Virus record (IMG/VR): IMGVR_UViG_2547132278_000008
Location: 1 to 12,292 of that record
DNA: 12,292 bases
Direction: 5' to 3' (one strand)
Origin: a virus
Taxonomy: Duplodnaviria; Heunggongvirae; Uroviricota; Caudoviricetes
The first letter of the stretch is position 1; the number at the start of each line of letters is the position of its first letter. This document shows, in pieces, positions 1 through 12,292 of the stretch. The translations under genes and the position numbers were made by a program. The notes below the pieces were generated by a model. The model had not been told where the DNA came from and searched no databases. It saw nothing but the letters and a program-made list of their open reading frames with translations.

Positions 1-769
<769 letters not shown>

Positions 770-774
770 AACAA

Positions 775-814
775 AAGCCTGCTTTAAAGAGAGTTTGAAG
801 CAGGCTTTCTTTTA
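775..814 (+). terminator. Rho-independent terminator after the exonuclease remnant
   Basis: 10-bp stem AAGCCTGCTT (775-784) pairs with AAGCAGGCTT (799-808), followed by TCTTTT. Confidence 0.6.
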
Positions 815-929
815 AAGAACAGTCGCCTTTCAATCATTTCCTGCCTGTATTTAATACTTTTCCGCCTGATAGGTTTAGTCAAAATGCAGCCATCGAAACG
901 CAAATGTAACCAAACAGAAGGAGACTTAC

Positions 930-1739
930 ATGAGTTCGGTTGAAAATGTAATGACAAATGATGATCTGGACGAGCTGACAGCCATGTTGCAATCACTTGA
1001 TGAACCAGTAAAAAAAGCTGCACAGGTTGAAAATACTGATGATATTGACGATCTGCTGCTCGGCCTAGATGCTGGCGTAGCCATGAGTTCTGATGATGTT
1101 GCCGAAGAACTGTTCAATGAAGAAAAAGCAGGTGATTTCAGCTCTACTTTAAATGAGTTGGAGTTAGCGCATGAGCCTATAAACGTAATTAACGCTGAAA
1201 GTGTTGAAGCTGCCGAAAACGAGCCAGAACAATTGGGATTTATTGAGGTTGAAGAGTGTGTTGAGGTTAATGATGAATTAAAAGTTCAACAGTCAAATGA
1301 TAGCAATACAAATAAAAAAGCTCGTACTGCAAGAGGTCCTCGTTTTACTTTAAGTGATAAAGATGATTCGTTTTTCAATAAAGCGGGCTTAGAAAAAGAT
1401 ATTTTCTTAGACGCTTACGATAACGCGCCTGTCAAAGCAAAGGATAAGATATTAAACCTTCTTAATTGGTTTAGCGGAGGTCCAGATATTAGTGTTTACA
1501 CGGTAATTTCCATGAGACACCTTCTCACAGAAAAGAAGGCTACAAGTAATAGTATTAAGATTGCTTTAATGAGCAATCCAGAAAAACCGTATCCGCTTAA
1601 CACTGCGTCAACTCAGGCTGGGCAAATGATGGCTGTATTTCCAGCGACAGGAATTGCCGTTAGAGACGGTGGAAATCTAACATTGAACGAAGAATCACCG
1701 ATCGTTAAGAAGTTTGTCGCGGAGTACACTATTGGATGA
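930..1739 (+). CDS. Hypothetical protein with a strongly acidic N-terminal half (269 aa); candidate DNA-mimic or anti-restriction protein
   Basis: ATG at 930 with GGAG 8 nt upstream. The first ~125 residues hold roughly 35 Asp/Glu against ~4 Lys by hand count; the C-terminal half is mixed-charge. No recognised motif. Confidence 0.6.
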   Translation: MSSVENVMTNDDLDELTAMLQSLDEPVKKAAQVENTDDIDDLLLGLDAGVAMSSDDVAEELFNEEKAGDFSSTLNELELAHEPINVINAESVEAAENEPEQLGFIEVEECVEVNDELKVQQSNDSNTNKKARTARGPRFTLSDKDDSFFNKAGLEKDIFLDAYDNAPVKAKDKILNLLNWFSGGPDISVYTVISMRHLLTEKKATSNSIKIALMSNPEKPYPLNTASTQAGQMMAVFPATGIAVRDGGNLTLNEESPIVKKFVAEYTIG

Positions 1740-1815
1740 CGTTCCCCTACTTAAAATAAAGCCCATAGAGAGCTTTATAGTACTGGGTAAGCCAATCACA
1801 TACCCAGCACCACAA

Positions 1816-1864
1816 AAACGCGCCAGAGAGCTTCTCGTTTGCATTTCTGGCGCGTTTTATTTGA
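1816..1864 (+). terminator. Rho-independent terminator
   Basis: 12-bp stem AAACGCGCCAGA (1816-1827) pairs with TCTGGCGCGTTT (1846-1857), followed by TTTTATTT. Confidence 0.55.
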
Positions 1865-1922
1865 TTGCCAGACATAAAATCAAATGCAAAAATAGGTATA
1901 TACTTACCTATCGAGAAAGAAG

Positions 1923-2516
1923 ATGATTGCAGCCGAAAAAATCAAACAGCGAAAGCGCGACAACTCTCTTCGTGACCTCTGGAGAACACCTGACTGGCTG
2001 TTTTCTGCCATTCAACGTTATCTTGGAGTGACATTTGATGTTGACGTTGCCTGCAACAAGGACAATGCAAAGCTGCCTAATTTCATAGGCGTTGAGCGTG
2101 ATGCTTTGAAATCTGAATGGGGACAGCCAGGTACAATTGCCTTCCTCAATCCACCCTACTCCAAAATCTACCCCTGGATTGATGCGGCTATACGTGAGCA
2201 GGCTCGCGGAGTTACAACAGTGATGCTAATTCCTCAATCCCTAGATACAAAGTGGTATGAGCGTGCAACAGAGTGTGCGAATGAGACGATTATTCTGTCT
2301 GGTGGCCGCGTAGCGTTTGTCGAGCCTGACGTAAATCTGGGTCAGGTAGAAGTAAACATCAACCCAGGTGGCAGTATGCTCGTTGTTTTTCGAGGATTCT
2401 GTCAGGACGCTGGGCACTCTATAAGCAAGATCCCTTTGGACGTCATGAAAAGTCTGGGAGGGTATGATCCTGCGAATGTGATCAGGAAAAAAAGACCATC
2501 AAAGAAGGCTGCTTAG
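1923..2516 (+). CDS. Phage-type DNA N6-adenine methyltransferase (small Dam family, 197 aa)
   Basis: Motif IV FLNPPYS is present, and the WRTPDWLF N-terminal signature and ~200 aa size match the small phage Dam family from memory. An inverted repeat ATAGGTA...TACCTAT (1893-1912) lies just upstream of the start. Confidence 0.8.
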   Translation: MIAAEKIKQRKRDNSLRDLWRTPDWLFSAIQRYLGVTFDVDVACNKDNAKLPNFIGVERDALKSEWGQPGTIAFLNPPYSKIYPWIDAAIREQARGVTTVMLIPQSLDTKWYERATECANETIILSGGRVAFVEPDVNLGQVEVNINPGGSMLVVFRGFCQDAGHSISKIPLDVMKSLGGYDPANVIRKKRPSKKAA

Positions 2517-2537
2517 TTTGTTCTGGCGTCTGTAATT

Positions 2538-2602
2538 AGCCTGCTTCTGTATATATAAATAACCACATATTAATTATTAATATACGGAAGCAGGCTGTTT
2601 TG
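2538..2602 (+). terminator. Long-loop hairpin with T-tract (terminator-like) after the methyltransferase
   Basis: AGCCTGCTTC (2538-2547) pairs with GAAGCAGGCT (2587-2596), then GTTTTG. The loop is 39 nt and AT-rich. The stem core is the same as in the 775-808 terminator. Confidence 0.4.
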
Positions 2603-2701
2603 TATCAGAGACTCCAGACCTGAACATCACTACAGAATCCACTAGAACCCCTTCCCAGACGCTTTAAAATCGATTTTATGAACCACTTTAAGGAAACCAA
2701 C

Positions 2702-2932
2702 ATGTCATACCCGACTAATGTCGTTGCGCTCGTAGAGAGCGATTTTCTGGCCCAGGCTCGTGAAATGATGAAAGATCGTGAGCAGGCTTTCAACTTGTAC
2801 GAATGGGCAATTAAGTGCTTGCATCTTGGCGAGCATCGCGAACTTGTTGAACAGCTTTTAGGTGAGTTGATCAATGAGGTGTTTGCCTTGAATGTTCAAC
2901 TACATGGTAGAGAAAATAATCAATCACAATGA
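2702..2932 (+). CDS. Hypothetical small protein (76 aa; alternative start at 2678)
   Basis: ATG at 2702 preceded by AAGGA (2690-2694). Translation MSYPTNVVALVESDFLAQAREMMKDREQAFNLYEWAIK... has no recognised motif. Confidence 0.4.
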   Translation: MSYPTNVVALVESDFLAQAREMMKDREQAFNLYEWAIKCLHLGEHRELVEQLLGELINEVFALNVQLHGRENNQSQ

Positions 2933-3514
2933 TAGATAAGTACAAACTATTCATAAAGTGAATTGTAAGTGCTAAGATCTGATAGTTTCCAGTCGTAGAC
3001 TGGAGACTCGACCTGATGGGTGGGGGTAAGCGTCACTGGCGTCAGGTTTAAAAAAGCTCACTACCAGCGTAGAACTGGTGCCGTTTAGGTGTCGGGGAAG
3101 GGGGAACCAAAGTGAGCAGAGACAAGGGTCACTTTATGATTGTCGAGTCTGGGGTGTTTCGAGAGGTTGAATCCAGTACTCCCCTTCATAAAGTGTGGGA
3201 AGATCTCGGTTCTGGGGTGCTGTCATCCATAACTTCCCAAGTCTAAGCTGGCAGTAGACTTAGACCATAACTTTTCAGGTTATGAAACGACCAGGTTGGT
3301 GAGAGATTTTTATACTCACCTCCCTGGGAGAGTATTACCTGAAAAGACAACCTCTCACTTCGTTCGAGGTGAACTTCACTCACTTCGTTCGTTCAGTTCA
3401 GGTTTATAAAAACCTGTTCTGGGAAGTAATTTGTTTATTTTAATAATTATTAACACGCACGCGTGTGCGCACGCGCGAGGAAAAATCGGCGCGGCGCTTG
3501 ATTCAGGAGTTTAT
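2933..3514. other. ORF-free, repeat-rich and hairpin-rich intergenic region; candidate structured ncRNA, origin or regulatory hub
   Basis: No ORF of 60 aa or more on either strand. Hairpins include CCAGTC gta GACTGG (2989-3003), GGTGAG...CTCACC (3298-3320) and AGGTTT ataa AAACCT (3401-3416). Direct repeats include TCTGGGGTG at 3138-3146 and 3211-3219, and CACTTCGTTCG at 3356-3366 and 3381-3391. Confidence 0.3.
3453..3477. repeat. 25-nt perfectly alternating purine-pyrimidine tract (Z-DNA-prone) with central CACGCGTG palindrome
   Basis: ACACGCACGCGTGTGCGCACGCGCG read directly; lies about 40 bp upstream of the RNase HI start codon. Confidence 0.9.
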
Positions 3515-4105
3515 ATGACGACGAAGACACCAGCCCGATCGCAAGCAAAAACTCGCAAAAAAGACAAAAACAAAAATTCTCCCCGCACCAATCCCACAAC
3601 GCCTGTCGTAGAGTTCAATCCCCAGCTTAAAACCGTGAAAATCTTTAGTGATGGCTCTTGCCTTAAAAATCCGGGTGGCCCGGGCGGTTACGGTATCGTT
3701 CTCCAGTATCGTGGTGAGGAACGCGAGTTCTCAGATGGTTTTCATAGCACCACCAATAACCGCATGGAGATGATGGGGGCACTTATCGGGCTGGAGCGTT
3801 TGAAATATCCATGCAACGTTATTTTGCACTCTGATAGCCAGTATCTGAAAAACGGCATGACACAGTGGATGAAATGGTGGAAACGCAATGGATGGATGAC
3901 TTCTGACAAAAAACCGGTAAAGAATGTTGATCTGTGGAAGCGTCTGGATGAGGCCGCAAGTCGACATAATGTTCGCTGGAAGTGGGTTAAAGGTCACGCC
4001 GGGCATCGTGAAAATGAAATATGTGATCGACTCGCGAAGATCGCAGCTTTTTCAGCAGCAGATATGCCTCACAAGAAAGATATTGGTTTTGTTTATAACA
4101 AATAG
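3515..4105 (+). CDS. Ribonuclease HI paralog (196 aa) with a ~45-aa basic N-terminal extension
   Basis: AGGAG at 3505-3509 precedes ATG 3515. The core aligns by eye to E. coli RNase HI with all catalytic residues present: IFSDGSC (D), NNRMEMMGA (E), HSDSQY (D), [18 protein letters not shown] (H, D). The extension is Lys/Arg/Pro/Thr-rich. Confidence 0.85.
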
Positions 4106-4202
4106 TAAGTAAGTGTTTACCTATCATTTTAAATCATGTATCTTATCGGCGTCAGGATGACAATGTGTCGGTAAGACACAGTTCCAGGATGGAACGAGAA
4201 AG

Positions 4203-4224
4203 GCGGCTGGCAATCGCCAGCCGC
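4203..4224 (+). terminator. GC-rich hairpin (possible terminator or 5'UTR structure)
   Basis: GCGGCTGGC aatc GCCAGCCGC forms a 9-bp stem; the downstream tail CTCTTTCT is only weakly U-rich. Confidence 0.35.
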
Positions 4225-4253
4225 AACTCTTTCTGACACTGGATGGAGTCCAC

Positions 4254-4748
4254 ATGGCACGTCAAACCTATTTCACTTCTGTAACTAAACGTCCTCGTTC
4301 TTTACGTCAAATTTTGGCCGAATTATTTAGCGGTCGTGTTATGTCACGTCTTGATGAACTAGAGACTACCGTTCGGTTGCTGAATGAACGTTTAGATAAT
4401 CAAGCGTCAGTTGTTGCGAACGTGGGGGCGATTGTTGCCTCTGGTTCTTCACGCGAAGCGAAAAGTACACGGCCTTTAGTGAAGGAGAAAAACAACAAGG
4501 ACAGTTCGAATGGAAAATTTTCAAAGAAAGAGGCTGAAACCAATGGCCTACGTTCTCATTATAGTTTCACTGGCGACGGTAGCCGTTCCAGCCGGCCAGA
4601 GCCTTTTGATGCCGGGTTCATCCATCACCACACCTCCGTCGACGACAATTACCACCACTCCAGTAGAGCGTCCTGTCACTCTGGATGGGATGACGGTGGA
4701 TGCGATACCTCAAGTTCATCCGGTTACTCAGGATCATGCTGTGACTAA
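4254..4748 (+). CDS. Hypothetical protein; N-terminal ~85 aa look coding, C-terminal part is doubtful (overlapped by a +1 frame ORF)
   Basis: GGAG at 4245-4248 precedes ATG 4254. The N-terminus is coiled-coil-like, but after about residue 90 the translation becomes Ser/His/Cys/Gly-rich low complexity. Confidence 0.35.
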   Translation: MARQTYFTSVTKRPRSLRQILAELFSGRVMSRLDELETTVRLLNERLDNQASVVANVGAIVASGSSREAKSTRPLVKEKNNKDSSNGKFSKKEAETNGLRSHYSFTGDGSRSSRPEPFDAGFIHHHTSVDDNYHHSSRASCHSGWDDGGCDTSSSSGYSGSCCD

Positions 4749-4761
4749 GGCGGTTGTATGA
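4510..4761 (+). CDS. Small putative secreted or membrane-anchored Thr/Pro-rich protein (83 aa)
   Basis: AAGGA at 4496-4500 precedes ATG 4510. It has a signal-peptide-like N-terminus (MENFQRKRLKPMAYVLIIVSLATVAVPAGQS) and a TTPPSTTITTTP tract, and its stop overlaps the next start as ATGA. Confidence 0.4.
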   Translation: MENFQRKRLKPMAYVLIIVSLATVAVPAGQSLLMPGSSITTPPSTTITTTPVERPVTLDGMTVDAIPQVHPVTQDHAVTKAVV

Positions 4762-4946
4762 ACTGGTTTTCAAATCACTTTGGAAAAATTTGGCTGGCAA
4801 TTCTTGCCCTCATGGCCGCCGGTTGGGTATCGAACATTATAAAACTTGTTTGCTCTGGCGATCTCCAGTTTCAGGCTGGCATGACCTTGGCTCGTGTAGT
4901 TGGGATTTTTGTTTTTCCAGTCGGTTCGGTACTTGGTTATTTCTGA
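4758..4946 (+). CDS. Small membrane protein (62 aa, two predicted transmembrane helices)
   Basis: ATG 4758 overlaps the preceding stop (ATGA). Hydrophobic segments IWLAILALMAAGWV and VVGIFVFPVGSVLGYF. Confidence 0.45.
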   Translation: MNWFSNHFGKIWLAILALMAAGWVSNIIKLVCSGDLQFQAGMTLARVVGIFVFPVGSVLGYF

Positions 4947-5001
4947 CGGCTGTTAGTGCATATGCATTGACCATCTTTGCGTAAGCAATTTATGTAATTA
5001 G

Positions 5002-5020
5002 AAAACAACTTGTTTTGACA
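5002..5020. promoter_or_regulatory. Perfect palindromic operator-like site AAAACAA-C-TTGTTTT overlapping a consensus TTGACA hexamer
   Basis: Read directly at 5002-5016; TTGACA at 5015-5020. Sits 23 nt upstream of ATG 5040. A possible -35/-10 pair (TTGACC 4967-4972, TATGTA 4991-4996) lies upstream, but the promoter assignment is uncertain. Confidence 0.45.
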
Positions 5021-5039
5021 AATAATAAAAGGAAAACAC

Positions 5040-5465
5040 ATGTTAGGTTTCTTCAAAAAGAAAACTCGTAAAGCTGTTATCGAAGTCAAAAAAATGGAGA
5101 ACCGTGATGCGGTTGAGGCCACCGTGTGGGGCGCGTACATGATCTCCTATGCCGACGGCACATGTGACGCAAAAGAAATTGCCATTCTTGAGAAGACAAT
5201 TGCAGCTCTGCCTGCGTTTTCTCCGTTTGCTGGTGAAATTGCCCAAATGAGCGCCAATATCCGTGCTCGTTACGAAGCGTCCCCTCGTTCTGCTAATGCA
5301 CAGGCTATTCGTGAGCTGTCTGATATTGCGGGTACTCCAGAGGCGGTCGATGTTCTGTGTCTGTGCCTTGATATTGCCGATCAGGACGGCATTGGTGAAC
5401 AAGAAGAGCAGGCACTGAAAAAGATCGCCCAGGCGCTTCAGTTGTCACTGGATGCTTATCTCTAA
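5040..5465 (+). CDS. TerB-like (tellurite-resistance TerB family) protein, 141 aa
   Basis: AAGGA at 5029-5033 precedes ATG 5040. Two TerB-type repeats with acidic Asp-Gly motifs (ISYADGTCDAKEIAILEK and CLDIADQDGIGEQEEQALKKI) match the TerB architecture from memory. Confidence 0.7.
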   Translation: MLGFFKKKTRKAVIEVKKMENRDAVEATVWGAYMISYADGTCDAKEIAILEKTIAALPAFSPFAGEIAQMSANIRARYEASPRSANAQAIRELSDIAGTPEAVDVLCLCLDIADQDGIGEQEEQALKKIAQALQLSLDAYL

Positions 5466-5623
5466 TGCTTGAGAGATTCCGGCTTGTGATCGTCATTGCT
5501 CTTCTGGTGATGGCGGTGTTGGTGGATTTTACGGGAAAGATGATGTCTGTCATTTCTGATGGCGTCCTCATTGGTTTGGCGATCTACTTCGCTTATCCGT
5601 TAGTTCGTAAAGCAAAGTGTTAA
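5465..5623 (+). CDS. Unannotated small membrane protein (52 aa), translationally coupled to the TerB-like gene
   Basis: TAATG stop/start overlap at 5463-5467. Hand translation gives MLERFRLVIVIALLVMAVLVDFTGKMMSVISDGVLIGLAIYFAYPLVRKAKC with two hydrophobic segments. It is below the 60-aa threshold of the ORF track. Confidence 0.5.
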   Translation: MLERFRLVIVIALLVMAVLVDFTGKMMSVISDGVLIGLAIYFAYPLVRKAKC

Positions 5624-5625
5624 TG

Positions 5626-5653
5626 ACAAGGGCCATTTGGCCCTTGTGTTTCG
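5626..5653 (+). terminator. Rho-independent terminator after the TerB-like/membrane pair
   Basis: ACAAGGGCC attt GGCCCTTGT forms a 9-bp stem, then GTTTCG. Confidence 0.5.
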
Positions 5654-5730
5654 TTGACCGAAATAGAGAGTTTGCACCTTTACGTTTAGCTTGCTCCCCT
5701 TTTATGCCACATCACAATAAAGCCAATAAG

Positions 5731-5745
5731 AAAACAACTTGTTTA
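5731..5745. promoter_or_regulatory. Second copy of the operator-like palindrome (AAAACAACTTGTTTA)
   Basis: Matches the 5002-5016 site at 14 of 15 positions within a shared AGAAAACAACTTGTTT context; sits 17 nt upstream of ATG 5763. Confidence 0.45.
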
Positions 5746-5762
5746 AGCATTAAGGAAAACAC

Positions 5763-6329
5763 ATGTGCGAGAAATGCAAAGCAATAGCTGATGAACAAAA
5801 CGCCCTATTCGAAGAAATGGATGCTAATGAACTTGTCAAAATGTTAGGCATTGTTCGGGGAACAGAAGACGTTTCTATATTTGAGAGACTGTTTACAGTA
5901 CTTAATTTTAATTCCACCTTTGAAGAGCCAACTCAGGTTGTAGCTTTGGCACACCATTTCGGTGTTCATTATCTTGCCGAAAAAGAGCGCGCTAATAAGT
6001 TGCAGGCGACTTTGGATATGGTGAGCGAGACTCAAGGAACCCATGACGGTAACAATAGTGAGACGATTATTGCCAGCAAAGATCGTGAAATTGCCGGACT
6101 TAAGTCTTCTCTAACGATGTTGATGTCTGCAATCAATCTTATGTCTTCTAAAGCGGGATATAAAATGCCATCACTAAACAGTGACGATCCAATGGCCGTT
6201 CGCCAGCTTTTGGGAGCAATGGCCGACCAGCTTGATGATACGAAAAGTCGGCTTGAAGACATGATGCGGGAGCTTACGCATCGCCACGACTTGAATAAGC
6301 AACCGCACAAAACGCAATACGCACTCTAA
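5763..6329 (+). CDS. Hypothetical protein (188 aa)
   Basis: AAGGA at 5752-5756 precedes ATG 5763. No recognised motif. The gene has its own operator-like site upstream and a terminator downstream. Confidence 0.6.
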   Translation: MCEKCKAIADEQNALFEEMDANELVKMLGIVRGTEDVSIFERLFTVLNFNSTFEEPTQVVALAHHFGVHYLAEKERANKLQATLDMVSETQGTHDGNNSETIIASKDREIAGLKSSLTMLMSAINLMSSKAGYKMPSLNSDDPMAVRQLLGAMADQLDDTKSRLEDMMRELTHRHDLNKQPHKTQYAL

Positions 6330-6346
6330 TACTGCACCAGTCGACA

Positions 6347-6368
6347 GGGGGCGAAAGCCCCCATTTTT
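6347..6368 (+). terminator. Rho-independent terminator with GAAA tetraloop
   Basis: GGGGGC gaaa GCCCCC followed by ATTTTT. Confidence 0.7.
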
Positions 6369-6427
6369 ACGCCTTAAATCTGCTGTAACGCCTATGAATG
6401 CAGCTTTTATGCCTTTTTAAGTTTGCG

Positions 6428-6472
6428 ATAATTACACCAATCAGAAAACAAATTATTTAATGGTGTAATTAT
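6428..6472. promoter_or_regulatory. 12-bp perfect inverted repeat embracing a degenerate operator motif and the start codon of the 6471 gene
   Basis: ATAATTACACCA (6428-6439) pairs with TGGTGTAATTAT (6461-6472). The 21-nt spacer holds AAAACAAaTTATTTA (6445-6459), and the A and T of ATG 6471 lie inside the right arm. Confidence 0.45.
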
Positions 6473-8156
6473 GAATACAGCCCTTTCCATCATCGACGAT
6501 GCCAGCTCAAACACGGCTATCGACTATCGTCAGGAAATGAATGTCATCCACGAAATCGTGGCCGAGTGCGAGAAAGAGATCGCCTTCATGTATCAGGTAC
6601 ACGACTTCGTTTATGGCGACGAACGCCACAACATGATTAATCGCCTGCTGAGACTAAACCATCGACCAGATGAAGATCGCTCGCGTTTAAATCGAGGTTG
6701 GTTGGATAAAGTCGATCTGGAATGGGTGAAACAGAATATTTGGGCCGAGTACTGGAGGAAGGTCACGGACATGACTAACGTTTTGCTGATCATGCCAGCT
6801 TCCCGTCGAGATGAGTGGCGCGAGCAGTTTATAGAGGGCAAACAGGAAGTCATCAAAACTGACAGAACCGGCTGCCAGATGAAGGTTAAAGAGTTCGTTG
6901 GTGTACCGGAGTTCAAAGCAGAAACGGTCATACCCACGATGCTTAATTTGCTGAATGACAGGCACAAATATCTCTCTGAGCGCGTGTATGGCTTGTTTAA
7001 GGCGCTGAGTCCTGCGCACAAGACAAATAAGACAAACGGTTTCAGCGAGCGTCTGATAATCGCTGACTGCATTTCTGATTTCTGGCGGGACAGCGTTAGC
7101 GTGAACTATCGCAAAGAGGACTACATCGACGATCTGCGTGTCTTGCTTCATTTCTTCGCGCACAAAGAATTTATTACCATCAACCGCACTGCTGAGGTGC
7201 TATCAGCTGCGTATCGGGCAAACGACTGCCAGACCGGTGACTGGATGAACGTCGATGGAAATCTGATGCGCGTGAAGATGTTCAAGAACGGCAACGTTCA
7301 CTTTGAAATACATCCTGACGTGGCCTGGAAGTTGAATGAGGTGCTGGCTTACAGTATGCCTGCTGCAATCCCCGCGCCATGCCGAACTGCGCCAAAAACA
7401 CGGGCACCAAAGCAGTTCGGGTTAATCCAGAAGACGATCTCCGTGCCGGTTCGCACTGCGCTTCGTGACGGGCGATTGAGCAAAGACAAAGGCGTATGGT
7501 ACTTCTCTGATTCAGCTCTCCAGAAGTCGCAGGTGGAAGAGCTTGAGCGCACACTGAGCTTCATTGGCGGCGTGCAGGAGAAAAAGCACTGGCAGTTCCC
7601 GTATGACATCGGCCATACGCTAAATACGATTGTGGCTACCGGTTTAATACCGGATACAAAATCACACCAGTTCTACCCTACCCCACGCTTGATTGCTGAG
7701 TACGTTGCAAGAGCCACTGAATTGAAGCCTGGTGAGAAGCTGTTGGAGCCTCAAGCCGGACGTGGGGATCTTCTGGCCTATATAAACGCCGATCTGGAAG
7801 ATGTTACCTGCATAGAAATCGCACCTCTCTTCGCTGATATCCTGCGTGGAAAAGGGTATACGAACACGATTTGCTGCGACTTCATAAAGTGGTCTGAGGA
7901 CAACGCAGGTTATCAGTTCGACAAAATCGTTATGAACCCGCCGTACTCGCTTGGTCGTCATAGAGAGCACACGCTGGCTGCGCTGGGGCATCTGAAAGTC
8001 GGCGGGCGTCTTGTAGCAGTATTGCCGGGCACTGCGCCAATACTGGACTGGATGACGATGGATAATTACGTTTATGCCAGAGGGAAGTCGTTTACCAACG
8101 AGTTTGAAGACACAGGGATCACAGTCAGCGTATACGTTTTCAAACGCGTTAAATGA
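6471..8156 (+). CDS. Large protein (561 aa): N-terminal ~400 aa of unknown function fused to a C-terminal N6-adenine methyltransferase domain
   Basis: A motif I-like segment (LLEPQAGRGDLLAYI) and motif IV (VMNPPYS) sit in the last ~150 residues. The N-terminal region has no motif I recognise. Confidence 0.75.
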   Translation: MNTALSIIDDASSNTAIDYRQEMNVIHEIVAECEKEIAFMYQVHDFVYGDERHNMINRLLRLNHRPDEDRSRLNRGWLDKVDLEWVKQNIWAEYWRKVTDMTNVLLIMPASRRDEWREQFIEGKQEVIKTDRTGCQMKVKEFVGVPEFKAETVIPTMLNLLNDRHKYLSERVYGLFKALSPAHKTNKTNGFSERLIIADCISDFWRDSVSVNYRKEDYIDDLRVLLHFFAHKEFITINRTAEVLSAAYRANDCQTGDWMNVDGNLMRVKMFKNGNVHFEIHPDVAWKLNEVLAYSMPAAIPAPCRTAPKTRAPKQFGLIQKTISVPVRTALRDGRLSKDKGVWYFSDSALQKSQVEELERTLSFIGGVQEKKHWQFPYDIGHTLNTIVATGLIPDTKSHQFYPTPRLIAEYVARATELKPGEKLLEPQAGRGDLLAYINADLEDVTCIEIAPLFADILRGKGYTNTICCDFIKWSEDNAGYQFDKIVMNPPYSLGRHREHTLAALGHLKVGGRLVAVLPGTAPILDWMTMDNYVYARGKSFTNEFEDTGITVSVYVFKRVK

Positions 8157-8217
8157 TAGGTAAATACTTACTTAATTTATGTAAGAATGTAGTTACTAAA
8201 CGATAAGAGAAAAACAC

Positions 8218-8922
8218 ATGAGCAACCTCCAGTTAGAGCATTTTAACGTCACAGGCCATTCCGATTTTCCTTTCAAGTTTACATTGAAAGGTTATGCAGA
8301 GGATGCGGTAGGCCAGATCATTATTGATAAAGGCATCGTTAAGTTTGAGGGGAATTTTGATGAATCCGCGAAAACATTCATAGACTTCGTTGCCAAACGT
8401 TGGAGCGAGCAATGGAAAGACCTGGAAAAGCGCGCTAGTGAGTTTGATCGGTTCATGGATGCAATGGATACAGCAAAAGAGGCTCTTGCTGCCGGGACTC
8501 CGTTAGATCTGGAGTCACTTTTCAACGGCGAAGTGGCCTCTGCGATGTTCGCCACCATGTTCGCGGGTGAGTTCGTCCGCAGCGGTGCCAAAAACTACCT
8601 TGAGCTGGATTACAACGTCCCTGCAATTGGCGATTTCGTCGTTACCATCCAACGCAAAGAAGGTAAGACGCCAGGTGAACGCGTCGCAGAGCTTGAGGCC
8701 GTTGTGGATCAGCGTAACGGAGAGTGTGACCGTTTGATCAACGAGCTTCATGCACTTCGGGAAGAAAGAATATGCGCGGGTAGTAATACACGTAATGCAG
8801 CGGATATCTACTTCCAGTTAGTTGAGGAATGCCAGATTCCACCAGGTGGCTCTCTTGTCGATTACGTCAGACATTTAATGGCGGAAGTTAACTCCAGCCA
8901 TAAAGATGGTGAGGTGCGCTGA
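8218..8922 (+). CDS. Hypothetical protein (234 aa), downstream of the methyltransferase fusion with no intervening terminator
   Basis: Leader ...AAGAGAAAAACACATG. Long ORF with a clean shadow pattern; no recognised motif. Confidence 0.6.
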   Translation: MSNLQLEHFNVTGHSDFPFKFTLKGYAEDAVGQIIIDKGIVKFEGNFDESAKTFIDFVAKRWSEQWKDLEKRASEFDRFMDAMDTAKEALAAGTPLDLESLFNGEVASAMFATMFAGEFVRSGAKNYLELDYNVPAIGDFVVTIQRKEGKTPGERVAELEAVVDQRNGECDRLINELHALREERICAGSNTRNAADIYFQLVEECQIPPGGSLVDYVRHLMAEVNSSHKDGEVR

Positions 8923-9302
8923 TGTTTGGCATTGATGCACAGCGTATAGCAGCTTTTGCAAAAAGTCCTCTTGATAATCCCTTGTCTCGTAGTGAGCAAA
9001 TGGCGCTGGCAAGGCTTTTTCTTCACATTCAAAAACAGGCAGACGTTTTCAATAACATGCCTGATCAACCTATTCTGGATGGTCACATCCAGATGGTCAT
9101 TAACAGTCATGAGAAAGGCTGGGCTGCAATCGTCCCCTGCACAATTACATACAAGTTGGCGAAAGAGGTTCAAGAGTTTCGAAAAGTCAGCGTCGAATCA
9201 GAGTCTACCAAAGCCGCAATAAACACTCTTATTCGCATGGGGTTCACATGGGACGGTGGAGCTTACTGGCAAGCACCTCAACCCATTTTATCCGACAATT
9301 AG
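8922..9302 (+). CDS. Hypothetical protein (126 aa), translationally coupled to the 8218 gene
   Basis: TGATG stop/start overlap at 8920-8924. No recognised motif. Confidence 0.55.
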   Translation: MFGIDAQRIAAFAKSPLDNPLSRSEQMALARLFLHIQKQADVFNNMPDQPILDGHIQMVINSHEKGWAAIVPCTITYKLAKEVQEFRKVSVESESTKAAINTLIRMGFTWDGGAYWQAPQPILSDN

Positions 9303-9332
9303 GCGCTACAAATCCTTCTGCATGAATAAATA

Positions 9333-9367
9333 AAGGCCATAAGTTATGGCCTTAAATAAATTGTTTT
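9333..9367 (+). terminator. Hairpin with downstream T-tract (terminator-like); tail carries a degenerate operator half-site
   Basis: AAGGCCATAA g TTATGGCCTT (9333-9353), then AAATAAATTGTTTT (9354-9367). Confidence 0.45.
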
Positions 9368-9440
9368 CTACCTTTTCTTATTTGTGAAAATAAACCAGCA
9401 CTTGGTAGTGCTTATGTAACAGCAAAGAAGAGAAAAACAC

Positions 9441-9941
9441 ATGAGTAACAAAATCGAAAATCCCGTAGTTCTCATTCACAAGCGCGAGAACCACGACTCC
9501 TATGCGGTGGCGATCACCAATGGGAGTCACGATTTTTACGATGGCCTGCTAATGGCCTCAGTGTCGCCTGATGAGGCAGACAACTCTTTTGCCGTCTTCG
9601 CTATGGTTGGTTACTACATGGCTGCCGAAATTGAGAAGTTGCGGGCGCAAAGAGACGCATTAGCGGCGGAGAATGCAGCCCTGAAAGAATCTGAGCGAGC
9701 ATTCGATGCGATGTGTGCCGAGGAACACGGAGATAATTGGGTTAGCGAATTAACGGAGACTCCAGCCACCGATACTTTTCTGGCTGAAGTACGTGCGCAG
9801 GGCGTGGATATGGCTCGTAACGCGATGATTGATTTTGTTGATGGTGAAGTTGGGCCAAACAAGAACGTTCCGGGGCTGATTAGAGGCGCAGAGATATGCG
9901 TAAGTATTGCTGAACAGCTTCGTAAAGGAGTCATCCAGTGA
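9441..9941 (+). CDS. Hypothetical phage protein (166 aa), first gene of a six-gene coupled operon
   Basis: Leader ...GAAGAGAAAAACACATG. Contains a coiled-coil-like AEIEKLRAQRDALAAENAALKE segment. Confidence 0.6.
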   Translation: MSNKIENPVVLIHKRENHDSYAVAITNGSHDFYDGLLMASVSPDEADNSFAVFAMVGYYMAAEIEKLRAQRDALAAENAALKESERAFDAMCAEEHGDNWVSELTETPATDTFLAEVRAQGVDMARNAMIDFVDGEVGPNKNVPGLIRGAEICVSIAEQLRKGVIQ

Positions 9942-10405
9942 GCAAGATTGACTATCAGGCACTGCGTGAAAAGGCAGAGAAAGCAACGTGTGGTAAGTGG
10001 TCGCTCGAATATGGAGAGAGCCGATTTGATGGTGATGATGCGCTAATTCATCGTGAAGTTGCTGGATATATTCCTATTTGCAGAATTGAAGGAGCGCATC
10101 CTGAAAGCGGTTTCGATGAAGATTTCCAGATGGAACAGCAGGCCAATGCTGAATTCATCGCCGCAGCCAGTCCAGCTACCGTGCTGGCACTACTGGATGA
10201 GATCAACGCATTAGAGGAAACGCGTATCAACGATGTTTGCCGTATTGCGGAACTAACAAAACAACTGGAGTTGGCAAAATCAAAACTCAACGAGCAGCGT
10301 GAGTATTACGAGGGCGTTATCTCGGATGGAAGTAAGCGCATAGCCGCTCTTCTTCGCAAGGACAATCTTGCCAGCGCCACGAACATTGAAGGTGAAAGAA
10401 AATGA
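9938..10405 (+). CDS. Ead/Ea22-like phage protein (155 aa)
   Basis: GTG start with AAGGAG at 9925-9930; GTGA overlap with the upstream stop. The N-terminal [18 protein letters not shown] and later [23 protein letters not shown] resemble lambdoid Ea22-like proteins from memory. Confidence 0.6.
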
Positions 10406-10725
10406 CCACATCGCACTCTGCTATTACCCAAGAAAAAGCCTTCAACATACTCGAACGACTAGAGACGCTCGCTACGGAGGAGGATATATCCCCGGAGAAA
10501 CTGGTTGAGTTCAGCCGTGTGATATTGCGTCGCAAGAACGATATGGAGCGGCTGACATCTGGCGCTCCATCCTTATCAGTCAGGCGAACACTTTGTTGCA
10601 GCTTCTGCAACAAATCCCAGTACGCCGTCAAAAAGTTAATTGCTGGGGACGCCGTTTTCATCTGCGACGAGTGTGTGGATGTGTGCAACAGAATTATCCG
10701 GGGAGAGAAAGAGGGATCAGCATGA
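10402..10725 (+). CDS. Small protein with a C-terminal ClpX-type C4 zinc-finger domain (107 aa)
   Basis: ATGA overlap at 10402-10405. [35 protein letters not shown] aligns closely to the ClpX N-terminal zinc-binding domain ([34 protein letters not shown]). Confidence 0.65.
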
Positions 10726-11252
10726 AATTTTCCAAATTTTCTGAGTTGGTGAATCGTATTTTGTCCAACAACCACAGCCATCGTCGCGATATGGATGTAA
10801 CGATCGTTGTTCATTCGCCTGGTCGCATCGGTTCAACACCATCAGTTGAGGTTCAGTCAATTCAGGCGGGTTTTGATTGGGATGCCGGGCAAGTGATGAT
10901 TTTTCCAGCACAGCCACTGACCACGCTAACACCAGAGCAGGTTGCTGATATCACTGATAGTGTGCGCAAAGGTCAGTCTTGGCACGCGTATCAGGAATAC
11001 AAGAAGCATAAAGAGCAGTTGGAAAAATTGTCGATGGAGTTGGAAGCCGCTAAACAGCGGGAAAAAGATCTGTTTATGGAAAATGTTCGACTTAAGTCAG
11101 GTATAGCCGGTCTGATACACCTCGGTATTCGATATGCGGATGTTGAGGTCATGAAAATTGCTGGAGATGCCCAGCTTTCTACTCCATGCACTGACAGCAT
11201 CATAAACAGCATTGCAGCAGGCATTTTCACCAAAGAGGGGGCAGCACGATGA
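10722..11252 (+). CDS. Hypothetical protein (176 aa)
   Basis: ATG 10722 overlaps the upstream stop (ATGA), with GAGGG 6 nt upstream. The track ORF 10593..11252 is an in-frame 5' extension that overlaps the previous gene. Confidence 0.55.
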
Positions 11253-11434
11253 GAACACTAGAGGTTCGCGCTGAAGACGTAATCCCTGGTGATGTGCTCA
11301 TAACATCTAAAGGTCAACAATGTGCGGTTAAATCTTTTTGGATGGAAAATGACAAAGTGACTCTGTTCGGTACGGATGGTTCCGAAACTGATTATGACTA
11401 CGACGAATTGCTTGTTGTTGAGAGAGCTGCCTAA
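11249..11434 (+). CDS. Hypothetical small protein (61 aa)
   Basis: ATGA overlap at 11249-11252 with AGAGGGGG upstream. Confidence 0.45.
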   Translation: MRTLEVRAEDVIPGDVLITSKGQQCAVKSFWMENDKVTLFGTDGSETDYDYDELLVVERAA

Positions 11435-11940
11435 TGACCACCGTTAACAATAAGAAATGCTACCCAAGCGAGAAATATCTTAATGAGCTGATCACCAACA
11501 TTGAGTTTGCTGCAAGGGCACCAGTTGAAGTCGTGAGAGCGATTGCAGCAGAGCTACAGAAGCACCGTAAGGCCTATGCCAATACAGCCGCATCTAAGGA
11601 TGGTTGGATAAGCTGTAGTGAGCGAATGCCTGTAATTGGCGAGCTAAATTGGAGAACTAGTTTTCCTTTACTGGTTATGTGTGAGATCGGCGTTATACCT
11701 GCTTATTACGGCTTTGTGAGCGTTAATGGTGATAGGCATTATGGCTTTATGGAGAGTCTTAAATACGGAGACGATAACGGCAACCATCCTCAAACTAATG
11801 AATATGGTCTGATTAGCAATGTCACACACTGGATGCCACTACCAGAACGCCGCAGGAGTCGAACAGTGAATAATGCAGAGTTATTTCAGAAAATATGTAA
11901 GCGTCAACGGAGCACCGTATTGACGCTTATTTATTGGTGA
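11434..11940 (+). CDS. DUF551-like phage protein; last ~14 codons and stop are supplied by the inserted IS66 terminus (3'-disrupted)
   Basis: TAATG overlap at 11432-11436. GWISCSERMP and THWMPLPE motifs are typical of DUF551 from memory. The IS-like terminus begins at 11897, inside the ORF. Confidence 0.55.
   Translation: MTTVNNKKCYPSEKYLNELITNIEFAARAPVEVVRAIAAELQKHRKAYANTAASKDGWISCSERMPVIGELNWRTSFPLLVMCEIGVIPAYYGFVSVNGDRHYGFMESLKYGDDNGNHPQTNEYGLISNVTHWMPLPERRRSRTVNNAELFQKICKRQRSTVLTLIYW
11897..11929. repeat. Terminal inverted repeat of the IS66-family element (starts GTAAGCG), containing an internal 9-bp palindrome
   Basis: GTAAGCGTCAACGGAGCACCGTATTGACGCTTA; IS66-family ends typically begin 5'-GTAA. 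Internal arms AAGCGTCAA and TTGACGCTT. Confidence 0.55.
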
Positions 11941-12292
11941 GTACTACGTTCCATGGCAGGAGTTCGTCAACACGGTTGGAGGGCCATTCCGGCAGTACGC
12001 TCAGAATATGGCGCAGATACGCTTCCGGATCGATACCGTTCAGTCGGCAGGTGCCGATCAGCCCGTACAGCAGTGCTCCACGCTCGCCGCCGTGATCGCT
12101 ACCGAAGAACACGTAATTTTTCTTTCCGAGACAGACTGCACGAAGCGCTCTTTCCGCTGTGTTATTGTCCACCTCCGCCAGACCGTCATCACTGTAATAA
12201 CAGAGGGCGTCCCACTGATTCAGTACATAGCTGAACGCTTCGCCCAGTCTGGATTTTTTCGACAGCGTGCCATTCTTCTCCACCATCCATTC
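11927..12292 (-). CDS. IS66-family transposase (TnpC-like), C-terminal part; 5' end outside window
   Basis: The - strand translation ...NNTAERALRAVCLGKKNYVFFGSDHGGERGALLYGLIGTCRLNGIDPEAYLRHILSVLPEWPSNRVDELLPWNVVLTNK matches the conserved IS66 transposase C-terminus from memory. Confidence 0.8.
   Translation of the reverse strand, partial: EWMVEKNGTLSKKSRLGEAFSYVLNQWDALCYYSDDGLAEVDNNTAERALRAVCLGKKNYVFFGSDHGGERGALLYGLIGTCRLNGIDPEAYLRHILSVLPEWPSNRVDELLPWNVVLTNK

Follow-up and report, generated by a model that had tools for sequence, protein, structure and literature searches.

A 12,292-nucleotide (nt) stretch of viral DNA (hereafter the window; positions 1 to 12,292 of the IMG/VR record IMGVR_UViG_2547132278_000008), assigned here to an SSU5-type phage-plasmid, encodes two methyltransferases, a Dam-type enzyme of 197 amino acids (aa) and a 561-aa fusion of a DUF4942 module with a methyltransferase domain. 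With a probability of roughly 0.65, both are solitary N6-adenine DNA methyltransferases of the early region that protect the DNA of the element from host restriction, without a nuclease partner. Directly observed are the identity of the two genes, the domain make-up of their products, the intact motifs, purifying selection, the lack of any conserved partner gene, and the pair's conservation within the element family.

The window is closely related to known phage-plasmids. All long open reading frames (ORFs) between positions 314 and 11940 lie on the + strand. Positions 348–11896 are 98% identical to ~110-kb non-mobilisable plasmids of E. coli and Shigella, such as pECOH89, and the same segment is 97–98% identical to the complete records of Escherichia phages CMS-2020a, PhiR41_1 and Cyrano. 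Its conserved part is 83% identical to Salmonella phage SSU5. The gene content of pECOH89 comprises a siphovirus morphogenesis module and a RepB-type replicon, together with its own genes for replication and nucleotide metabolism (DnaE, a DnaB-like helicase, primase, ligase, NrdAB, ThyA and DHFR). Judged by this gene content and by homology, the window is the early/DNA-metabolism region of an SSU5-type phage-plasmid.

The small Dam-type enzyme

The small gene (1923–2516, + strand) was identified with Pfam and NCBIfam profiles as that of a T1/HP1-type (PF05869) N6-adenine DNA methyltransferase. The 197-aa protein matches the PF05869 'Dam' profile with 131.6 bits (E 2.9e-38; cut-off 28.1) and the NCBIfam equivalog TIGR01712 (phage_N6A_met) with 113.2 bits (cut-off 97.05). 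When aligned with the enzymes of T1, HP1 and Stx phages, the protein shows a DLWRTP motif at residues 18–23 (1974–1991, +), and motif IV, NPPYS, is evident from both sequence and alignment at residues 76–80 (2148–2162, +). The residues D18, W20, T22, P23, D41, N48 and W66, as well as the entire N76-P-P-Y-S80 block, are invariant in the alignment with HP1 orf13, T1 Dam and Stx-phage Dam, at overall identities of 30% (HP1), 27% (T1) and 34% (Stx phage; 39% by tblastn).

The protein is 98–100% identical to annotated proteins on the ~110-kb plasmids. Furthermore, its gene is found with 100% identity on a 72-kb plasmid of E. coli O169:H41, from which the insertion sequence (IS) junctions of the window are absent. 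Compared with the SSU5 counterpart, the gene retains 75% nucleotide identity, with a non-synonymous substitution rate (dN) of 0.098 and a saturated synonymous rate (dS).

The T1 enzyme is a Dam methylase, and GATC is the specificity of these phage Dam enzymes. The target of the 197-aa enzyme is most probably GATC as well, a reasonable guess from its T1/HP1/VT-2 relatives at 25–39% identity. The VT-2 and HP1 enzymes have been cited as phage Dam methylases (PMC7556043).

The large DUF4942-methyltransferase fusion

The large gene (6471–8156, +), recognized by Pfam and PHROGs, encodes a 561-aa protein with 99% identity to an NCBI cluster of 1384 members; over its whole length, the protein also matches phrog_6263, 'DNA methyltransferase'. 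The N-terminal module (residues 1–392; 6471–7646, +) includes the Pfam DUF4942 match (PF13708; residues 144–295; 6900–7355, +) at 73.7 bits against a threshold of 25. The C-terminal 170 residues contain HQFYPTP, EPQAGRGD and NPPYS in this order and give a weak but consistent motif-by-motif alignment with M.TaqI. HQFYPTP (residues 399–405; 7665–7685, +) is the motif found ahead of motif I in amino-methyltransferases of the gamma order, and its counterpart in the M.TaqI alignment is 'ETPPEVV'. Motif I, EPQAGRGD (residues 426–433; 7746–7769, +), is the S-adenosylmethionine (SAM)-binding loop and is kept in 134 of 138 representatives of the family, and the NPP[YFW] pattern of motif IV (NPPYS, residues 489–493; 7935–7949, +) is kept in 135 of the 138. 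The protein has the gamma order, in which FxTP is followed by motif I (ExxxGxG) and motif IV (NPPY) in a Rossmann fold.

Two Pfam profiles match the protein below threshold, namely N6_Mtase (18.5 bits; threshold 20.4) and Eco57I (12.1 bits; threshold 25.3). The chain ends 68 residues past NPPY and has no C-terminal target-recognition domain; its N-terminal ~390 residues gave no match to known target-recognition domains. The gene is under purifying selection relative to SSU5, with a dN/dS of 0.085 (0.08 for the N-terminal module and 0.10 for the methyltransferase domain). We regard the protein as a probable DNA methyltransferase.

The family of the N-terminal module is large. A profile of the module returned 1,578 representative clusters (50% identity level) at E ≤0.001, 412 of them at ≤1e-30, and among the 149 top representatives newly returned, 138 have a length of 480 aa or more, which corresponds to the module plus ~170 residues. 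Across these 138 full-length representatives, W95, L179, S180, H183, T185, N186, I196, D221, W258, H277, N289 and L292 show no variation (100%), while R223 and D262 are kept in at least 97%; residues 179–186 form an LSxxHxTN motif. Because the fusion could conceal a nuclease, as in Type IIG enzymes, the N-terminal 392 residues were modelled separately (predicted local distance difference test score, pLDDT, 82.6). A Foldseek search of this model against viral models returned only unnamed phage proteins of 250–310 aa, and the module showed no nuclease fold and no match to solved folds. The assignment as a fused Type IIG/IIL (MmeI-like) restriction-methyltransferase was rejected, as no N-terminal PD-(D/E)XK domain was found.

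Two further assignments of the 561-aa enzyme were considered and rejected. Residues 394–523 match PADLOC mad2 (E 1.1e-15), but the match is only partial and does not extend over the full length, which argues against membership of the MADS defence system. A scan of the other window ORFs returned no PADLOC family except a weak Csn2 match, with no specific look for other mad genes. A link to the P1 DarB-type giants was also discarded, since the PHROG matches to proteins of 1.2–3.9 kaa (thousand amino acids) span the methyltransferase domain only; tblastn of the C-terminal domain against phages gave no DarB-annotated or phage P1 entry among the matches listed.

Relationship of the two enzymes and absence of a recognisable endonuclease

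A first-pass annotation of the window had described a 197-aa Dam-family enzyme and a 561-aa fusion, both with an NPPY-type motif IV, as unrelated adenine methyltransferases accompanied by no recognisable restriction endonuclease. The coordinates, lengths and motifs given there are correct. In BLASTP between the two proteins, the NPPYS hexapeptide is the only shared stretch, indicating that the enzymes belong to different families. The word 'unrelated', however, applies at the family level only, as both share the class-I SAM-methyltransferase fold.

The statement on the endonuclease is borne out by wider searches. No restriction-enzyme family was detected among the window ORFs on either strand by Pfam, NCBIfam, PHROGs, PADLOC or PDB sequence searches; likewise, no restriction enzyme is annotated in the complete pECOH89, and none lies beside the distant homologues. 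This negative result is bounded by four neighbours without a family (269, 188, 234 and 126 aa). The only nucleases in the window are a truncated RNase T-type 3'-5' exonuclease and RNase HI, which are enzymes of replication, not restriction. A Type II restriction-modification system was rejected, because no cognate endonuclease was found and no neighbour is shared with the distant homologues.

Conservation of the pair and its neighbourhood

Both methyltransferase genes are present in SSU5 in the same order and are annotated there as DNA methyltransferases (SSU5_088 and SSU5_095), and hundreds of public records, that of the type phage SSU5 among them, contain annotated genes nearly identical to the two of the window. 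The pair is not a peculiarity of the window but a conserved and annotated core feature of the SSU5 group. Already annotated publicly, it is expected biology for a temperate phage-derived element.

The two genes occur together on contigs of ~84–113 kb from E. coli, Salmonella, Klebsiella, Cronobacter, Xenorhabdus and Providencia, down to 45–60% identity. At an identity of at least 60%, ~720 PLSDB plasmids match the small enzyme and ~844 the large one, and ~1,690 PLSDB plasmids carry a homologue of the large enzyme below 60%; among all matching plasmids, 1,360 are conjugative. The local order of exonuclease, ~270-aa ORF, Dam and ~75-aa ORF is kept in the Xenorhabdus and Providencia relatives. 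The Dam homologues of Stx phages are located between ninB and ninE.

Homologues of the large enzyme at 31–37% identity come from two sources, IncHI2 plasmids and lambdoid prophages, the latter in Variovorax and an Enterobacterales bacterium. In the prophages, the gene belongs to the early-right operon, where it follows cI/cro and the replication genes and adjoins PF01555 and PF00145 methyltransferases (loci L002 8001–10936 and L004 4948–12320), whereas the homologue on the IncHI2 plasmid pSJO-60984 (L011 3560–7844) adjoins an alpha-class Dam near repHI2. When each window ORF was searched by tblastn against the Variovorax and Enterobacterales prophage loci and the IncHI2 locus, the methyltransferase alone was recovered, indicating that the large enzyme has no conserved partner.

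Proposed function and alternative explanations

We infer the timing of expression and the protective role as follows. The two enzymes, core genes of SSU5-type phage-plasmids in a co-directional early/DNA-metabolism region, would be made as the element replicates after infection or induction; the position of the genes, and that of their homologues in early-right operons or the nin region, speaks for this indirectly. The small enzyme would act as a minimal T1/HP1/VT-2-type Dam, most probably methylating GATC, while the large enzyme would use a TaqI-like catalytic domain, with the DUF4942 module presumably holding or selecting the DNA substrate. Neither would be paired with a nuclease. The element's own DNA would be pre-methylated and could thereby survive restriction in its present and next host, and a secondary role in the timing of replication, packaging or gene expression is possible. 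Orphan methyltransferases of prophages and plasmids are often silent when carried and protective on entry (PMC4659465, PMC7736820). Such behaviour has been published for M.EcoGIX, M.EcoGII and ST131 prophage enzymes, beta-class proteins to which the two window enzymes are not related, so that the parallel is one of analogy. The anti-restriction or epigenetic role put forward in the first-pass annotation is how enzymes of this kind from phages and plasmids are usually interpreted, and none of the present results contradicts it.

Several points nevertheless weigh against protection by solitary enzymes. The segment contains 47 GATC sites against 53.7 expected, so that GATC is neither avoided nor enriched, and no avoidance of 4-mer palindromes that might serve as a clue to the target was seen in the segment, except for the usual CTAG depletion. 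E. coli, Salmonella and Klebsiella possess their own Dam, and a GATC enzyme would therefore be redundant while the element is carried. The 269-, 188-, 234- and 126-aa neighbours fit no recognisable family or fold. The N-terminal module of the large enzyme is invariant at many polar positions family-wide, unlike target-recognition domains, which vary with specificity. Finally, our literature searches returned no experimental study of DUF4942 proteins, of PF05869 function, or of methylation in the SSU5 group or pHCM2; in the literature found, DUF4942 appears only as an incidental annotation label.

The redundancy with host Dam bears on one alternative, in itself unlikely but worth weighing, that the enzymes are mainly epigenetic regulators of the life cycle of the element, acting on plasmid replication, pac/cos cleavage, mismatch-repair strand choice or the lysis–lysogeny decision, as Dam does in P1, whose life cycle is under the control of Dam methylation. 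In favour of it, the element has replisome genes of its own and is maintained by plasmid replication, and DNA-metabolism genes surround the methyltransferases; moreover, the hosts already methylate GATC, so that protection at GATC alone gains little, and both genes apparently form separate transcription units behind terminator-like hairpins. However, the homologues of the large enzyme in lambdoid prophages and IncHI2 plasmids belong to elements whose replication and packaging systems differ, and their presence in such unrelated elements favours a general role over one specific to the element; nor were any methylation-sensitive sites identified.

The invariance of the N-terminal module is the sole unexplained aspect of the methyltransferase finding, and it suggests either one common way of binding the substrate or a second functional site. 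That the DUF4942 module forms a second active or sensing site is distinctly doubtful; the family would then be bifunctional, for example a methyltransferase with another DNA-modifying or nicking activity, or one that is sequence-independent or structure-specific, such as an enzyme directed at single strands or replication forks like M.EcoGIX.

In structural comparison, METTL5, Erm and KsgA score as well as DNA enzymes do, which would suit a 561-aa protein that methylates RNA (N6-methyladenine, m6A, or N2-methylguanosine, m2G, in rRNA or tRNA) or protein (as HemK-like NPPY enzymes do), perhaps to seize host translation. We consider this quite improbable. The methyltransferase domain is more similar to CamA (27% identity) and M.TaqI (25%) than to METTL5 (16%), its F-Y-P-T-P and EPxAGxG motifs align with M.TaqI, and the PADLOC and PHROG matches are DNA methyltransferases; furthermore, the gene repeatedly adjoins other DNA methyltransferases in phage early operons. 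Very improbable, finally, is a cryptic restriction-modification or defence system that includes one of the methyltransferases and has the 269-aa protein always present upstream of Dam, one of the 188- and 234-aa proteins flanking the large gene, or the DUF4942 module as its nuclease, an idea that could appeal to the 267–319-aa ORF, Dam and ~75-aa ORF order kept in Xenorhabdus, Providencia and other distant relatives, to the invariant H, D, N and R residues of the module, and to neighbours that fall in no family, and that is set against the endonuclease searches described above.

Clinical E. coli, Klebsiella, Salmonella and Enterobacter commonly harbour SSU5-type phage-plasmids, some of which carry CTX-M-15 (pECOH89). 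The methyltransferases of these elements probably help set host range, since a methylated element can get past restriction barriers. The family of the 561-aa enzyme extends to ~1,580 representative clusters and ~2,500 PLSDB plasmids, including IncHI2 resistance plasmids, and the methylome of a single DUF4942-methyltransferase member would annotate many elements at once. The residual value of the finding is this uncharacterised yet very widespread DUF4942-methyltransferase architecture.

Upstream signals and neighbouring genes

Terminator-like hairpins precede both methyltransferase genes, which may on this account be separate transcription units. Upstream of the Dam-type gene, a hairpin (GCGCCAGA/TCTGGCGC) followed by a T-run was read by eye from the sequence at 1820–1862 (+), and a sigma-70-like site with 9/12 matches and a TG extension is predicted at 1865–1893 (+), an arrangement that suggests a transcription start of its own. 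A terminator-like GC hairpin (GGGGGCGAAAGCCCCC plus T-run; 6347–6362, +) lies 108 nt upstream of the 561-aa gene and is kept base for base in pECOH89 and SSU5. Between this hairpin and the large gene, a perfect 10-bp inverted repeat (AATTACACCA ... TGGTGTAATT; 6431–6440 and 6461–6470) ends at the ATG and spans the likely ribosome-binding site. An interpretation as an operator, or as a hairpin that sequesters the ribosome-binding site, was rejected as weak, because SSU5 keeps only a 5-bp core with no compensatory changes.

Directly upstream of the Dam-type gene, the 269-aa ORF (930–1739, +) occupies the position of the 267–319-aa ORF in the Xenorhabdus and Providencia relatives. Its first 120 residues have an extreme acidic bias (34 D/E versus 4 K/R; isoelectric point ~4), and it matches only PHROGs of unknown function; its product might, speculatively, be a DNA-mimic-type anti-restriction protein. 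The 164-aa ORF at 4254–4748 (+) belongs to phrog_10411, is conserved in the SSU5 group and has an unusual Ser/Cys/Gly/Asp-rich tail (…CHSGWDDGGCDTSSSSGYSGSCCD). Positions 5040–5623 encode a TerB-domain protein and a 52-aa DUF3927 membrane peptide, while the corresponding slot of SSU5 (L007 6754–7488) holds the Ant anti-repressor. The slot is a variable cassette between two conserved methyltransferase genes.

Boundaries and mosaic structure of the segment

The phage-plasmid segment is flanked by transposable elements on both sides. At the left, positions 1–356 are an end of IS100 (IS21 family), 98–99% identical to IS100 copies, and plasmid homology begins at 348; this end cuts the 3'-5' exonuclease gene, which encodes 151 aa in the window versus 185 aa in pECOH89. 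The right boundary is an IS66-family (ISEc47-like) end (11883–12292, – strand) that carries the C-terminus of the transposase (PF03050, PF13817) and truncates the DUF551 gene; plasmid homology stops at 11896. Among the SSU5-like plasmid matches listed, none reaches outside 348–11896, and for this reason the segment is taken as an IS-invaded or fragmentary copy of a phage-plasmid; the replicon that carries it may be a phage-plasmid invaded by insertion sequences or another replicon that captured an 11.5-kb fragment. The earlier description of 'two orphan methylases on one element' is to be adjusted in this respect: the orphan status holds, but the element is represented by a fragment of an SSU5-like phage-plasmid between IS100 and IS66-family ends.

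In the right part of the segment (9441–11896), Ead/Ea22-like, ClpX-zinc-finger and DUF551 proteins stand in place of the HD-domain genes of pECOH89. This region is 93–94% identical to the lambdoid phages HK140 and N7, suggesting that phage-plasmids and lambdoid phages exchange segments in a mosaic manner.

A candidate structured RNA

A 580-bp gap between an 84-aa ORF and the RNase HI gene (2933–3514) contains an unannotated noncoding stretch of ~430 nt at ~3007–3440 (+). By inspection of the alignment, this stretch differs from SSU5 at few positions, versus 75% identity for the Dam gene, and its conservation exceeds that of the flanking coding DNA. Of 686 matching SSU5-like plasmids, 674 carry it at an identity of at least 90%; among them are Klebsiella elements in which the large methyltransferase reaches only 62% identity. 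It is never annotated in the matching plasmid records. In the Xenorhabdus and Providencia relatives, a search of the 2.5 kb that follow the Dam gene did not detect it.

The stretch folds better than shuffled sequence (z –4.6). A structure derived from eight sequences has 16 helices with a total of 128 pairs, and 99.2% of its cells are paired. Compensatory double changes occur at 8 pairs, compared with 2.8 ± 1.1 in shuffles (0/500) and 0–2 in slid controls, and many invariant G-U pairs indicate the + strand. Searches of the stretch with Rfam and ARAGORN gave no match, including to tRNA and tmRNA. We regard it as a candidate new structured RNA. One idea is a replication-primer or origin RNA, because the stretch adjoins RNase HI. 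The element may be more novel than the methyltransferase finding.

Comparison with known systems

The closest counterparts of the pair are SSU5_088 and SSU5_095 and the genes of pECOH89-type plasmids, orthologues with 86% and 92% protein identity, the same order and the same flanking genes, which are annotated as DNA methyltransferase, phage N-6-adenine-methyltransferase or DUF4942 protein. By comparison, the window segment is broken by insertion sequences at both ends and differs in the genes between and after the pair, with TerB/DUF3927 in place of Ant and lambdoid Ea22/DUF551 in place of the HD-domain genes.

The 197-aa enzyme resembles the Dam enzymes of T1, HP1 (orf13) and Stx/VT-2 phages in its small single-domain build and aligns with them end to end. 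Members of this family are likewise solitary and located in the phage early or nin-type region. In contrast, the basic C-terminal tail RKKRPSKKAA of the 197-aa enzyme is absent from the aligned Stx-phage and HP1 enzymes. The 561-aa enzyme differs in architecture from M.TaqI, M.BseCI and CamA, in which a C-terminal target-recognition domain is present; it has instead a ~390-aa DUF4942 module before the catalytic domain.

In function, the best analogy is provided by solitary m6A enzymes of mobile elements that stay silent while carried and protect incoming DNA, namely M.EcoGIX and M.BceJIII, which are encoded in plasmid leading regions and act on single strands, and the non-specific prophage enzyme M.EcoGII (PMC7736820, PMC5778455). 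Neither of the two enzymes described here is related to them in sequence: the analogues belong to the beta class, with DPPY, and lack a DUF4942 module. Membership of the M.EcoGIX/M.EcoGII group was rejected, as both window proteins have motif I before motif IV together with NPPY, rather than the beta order with DPPY.

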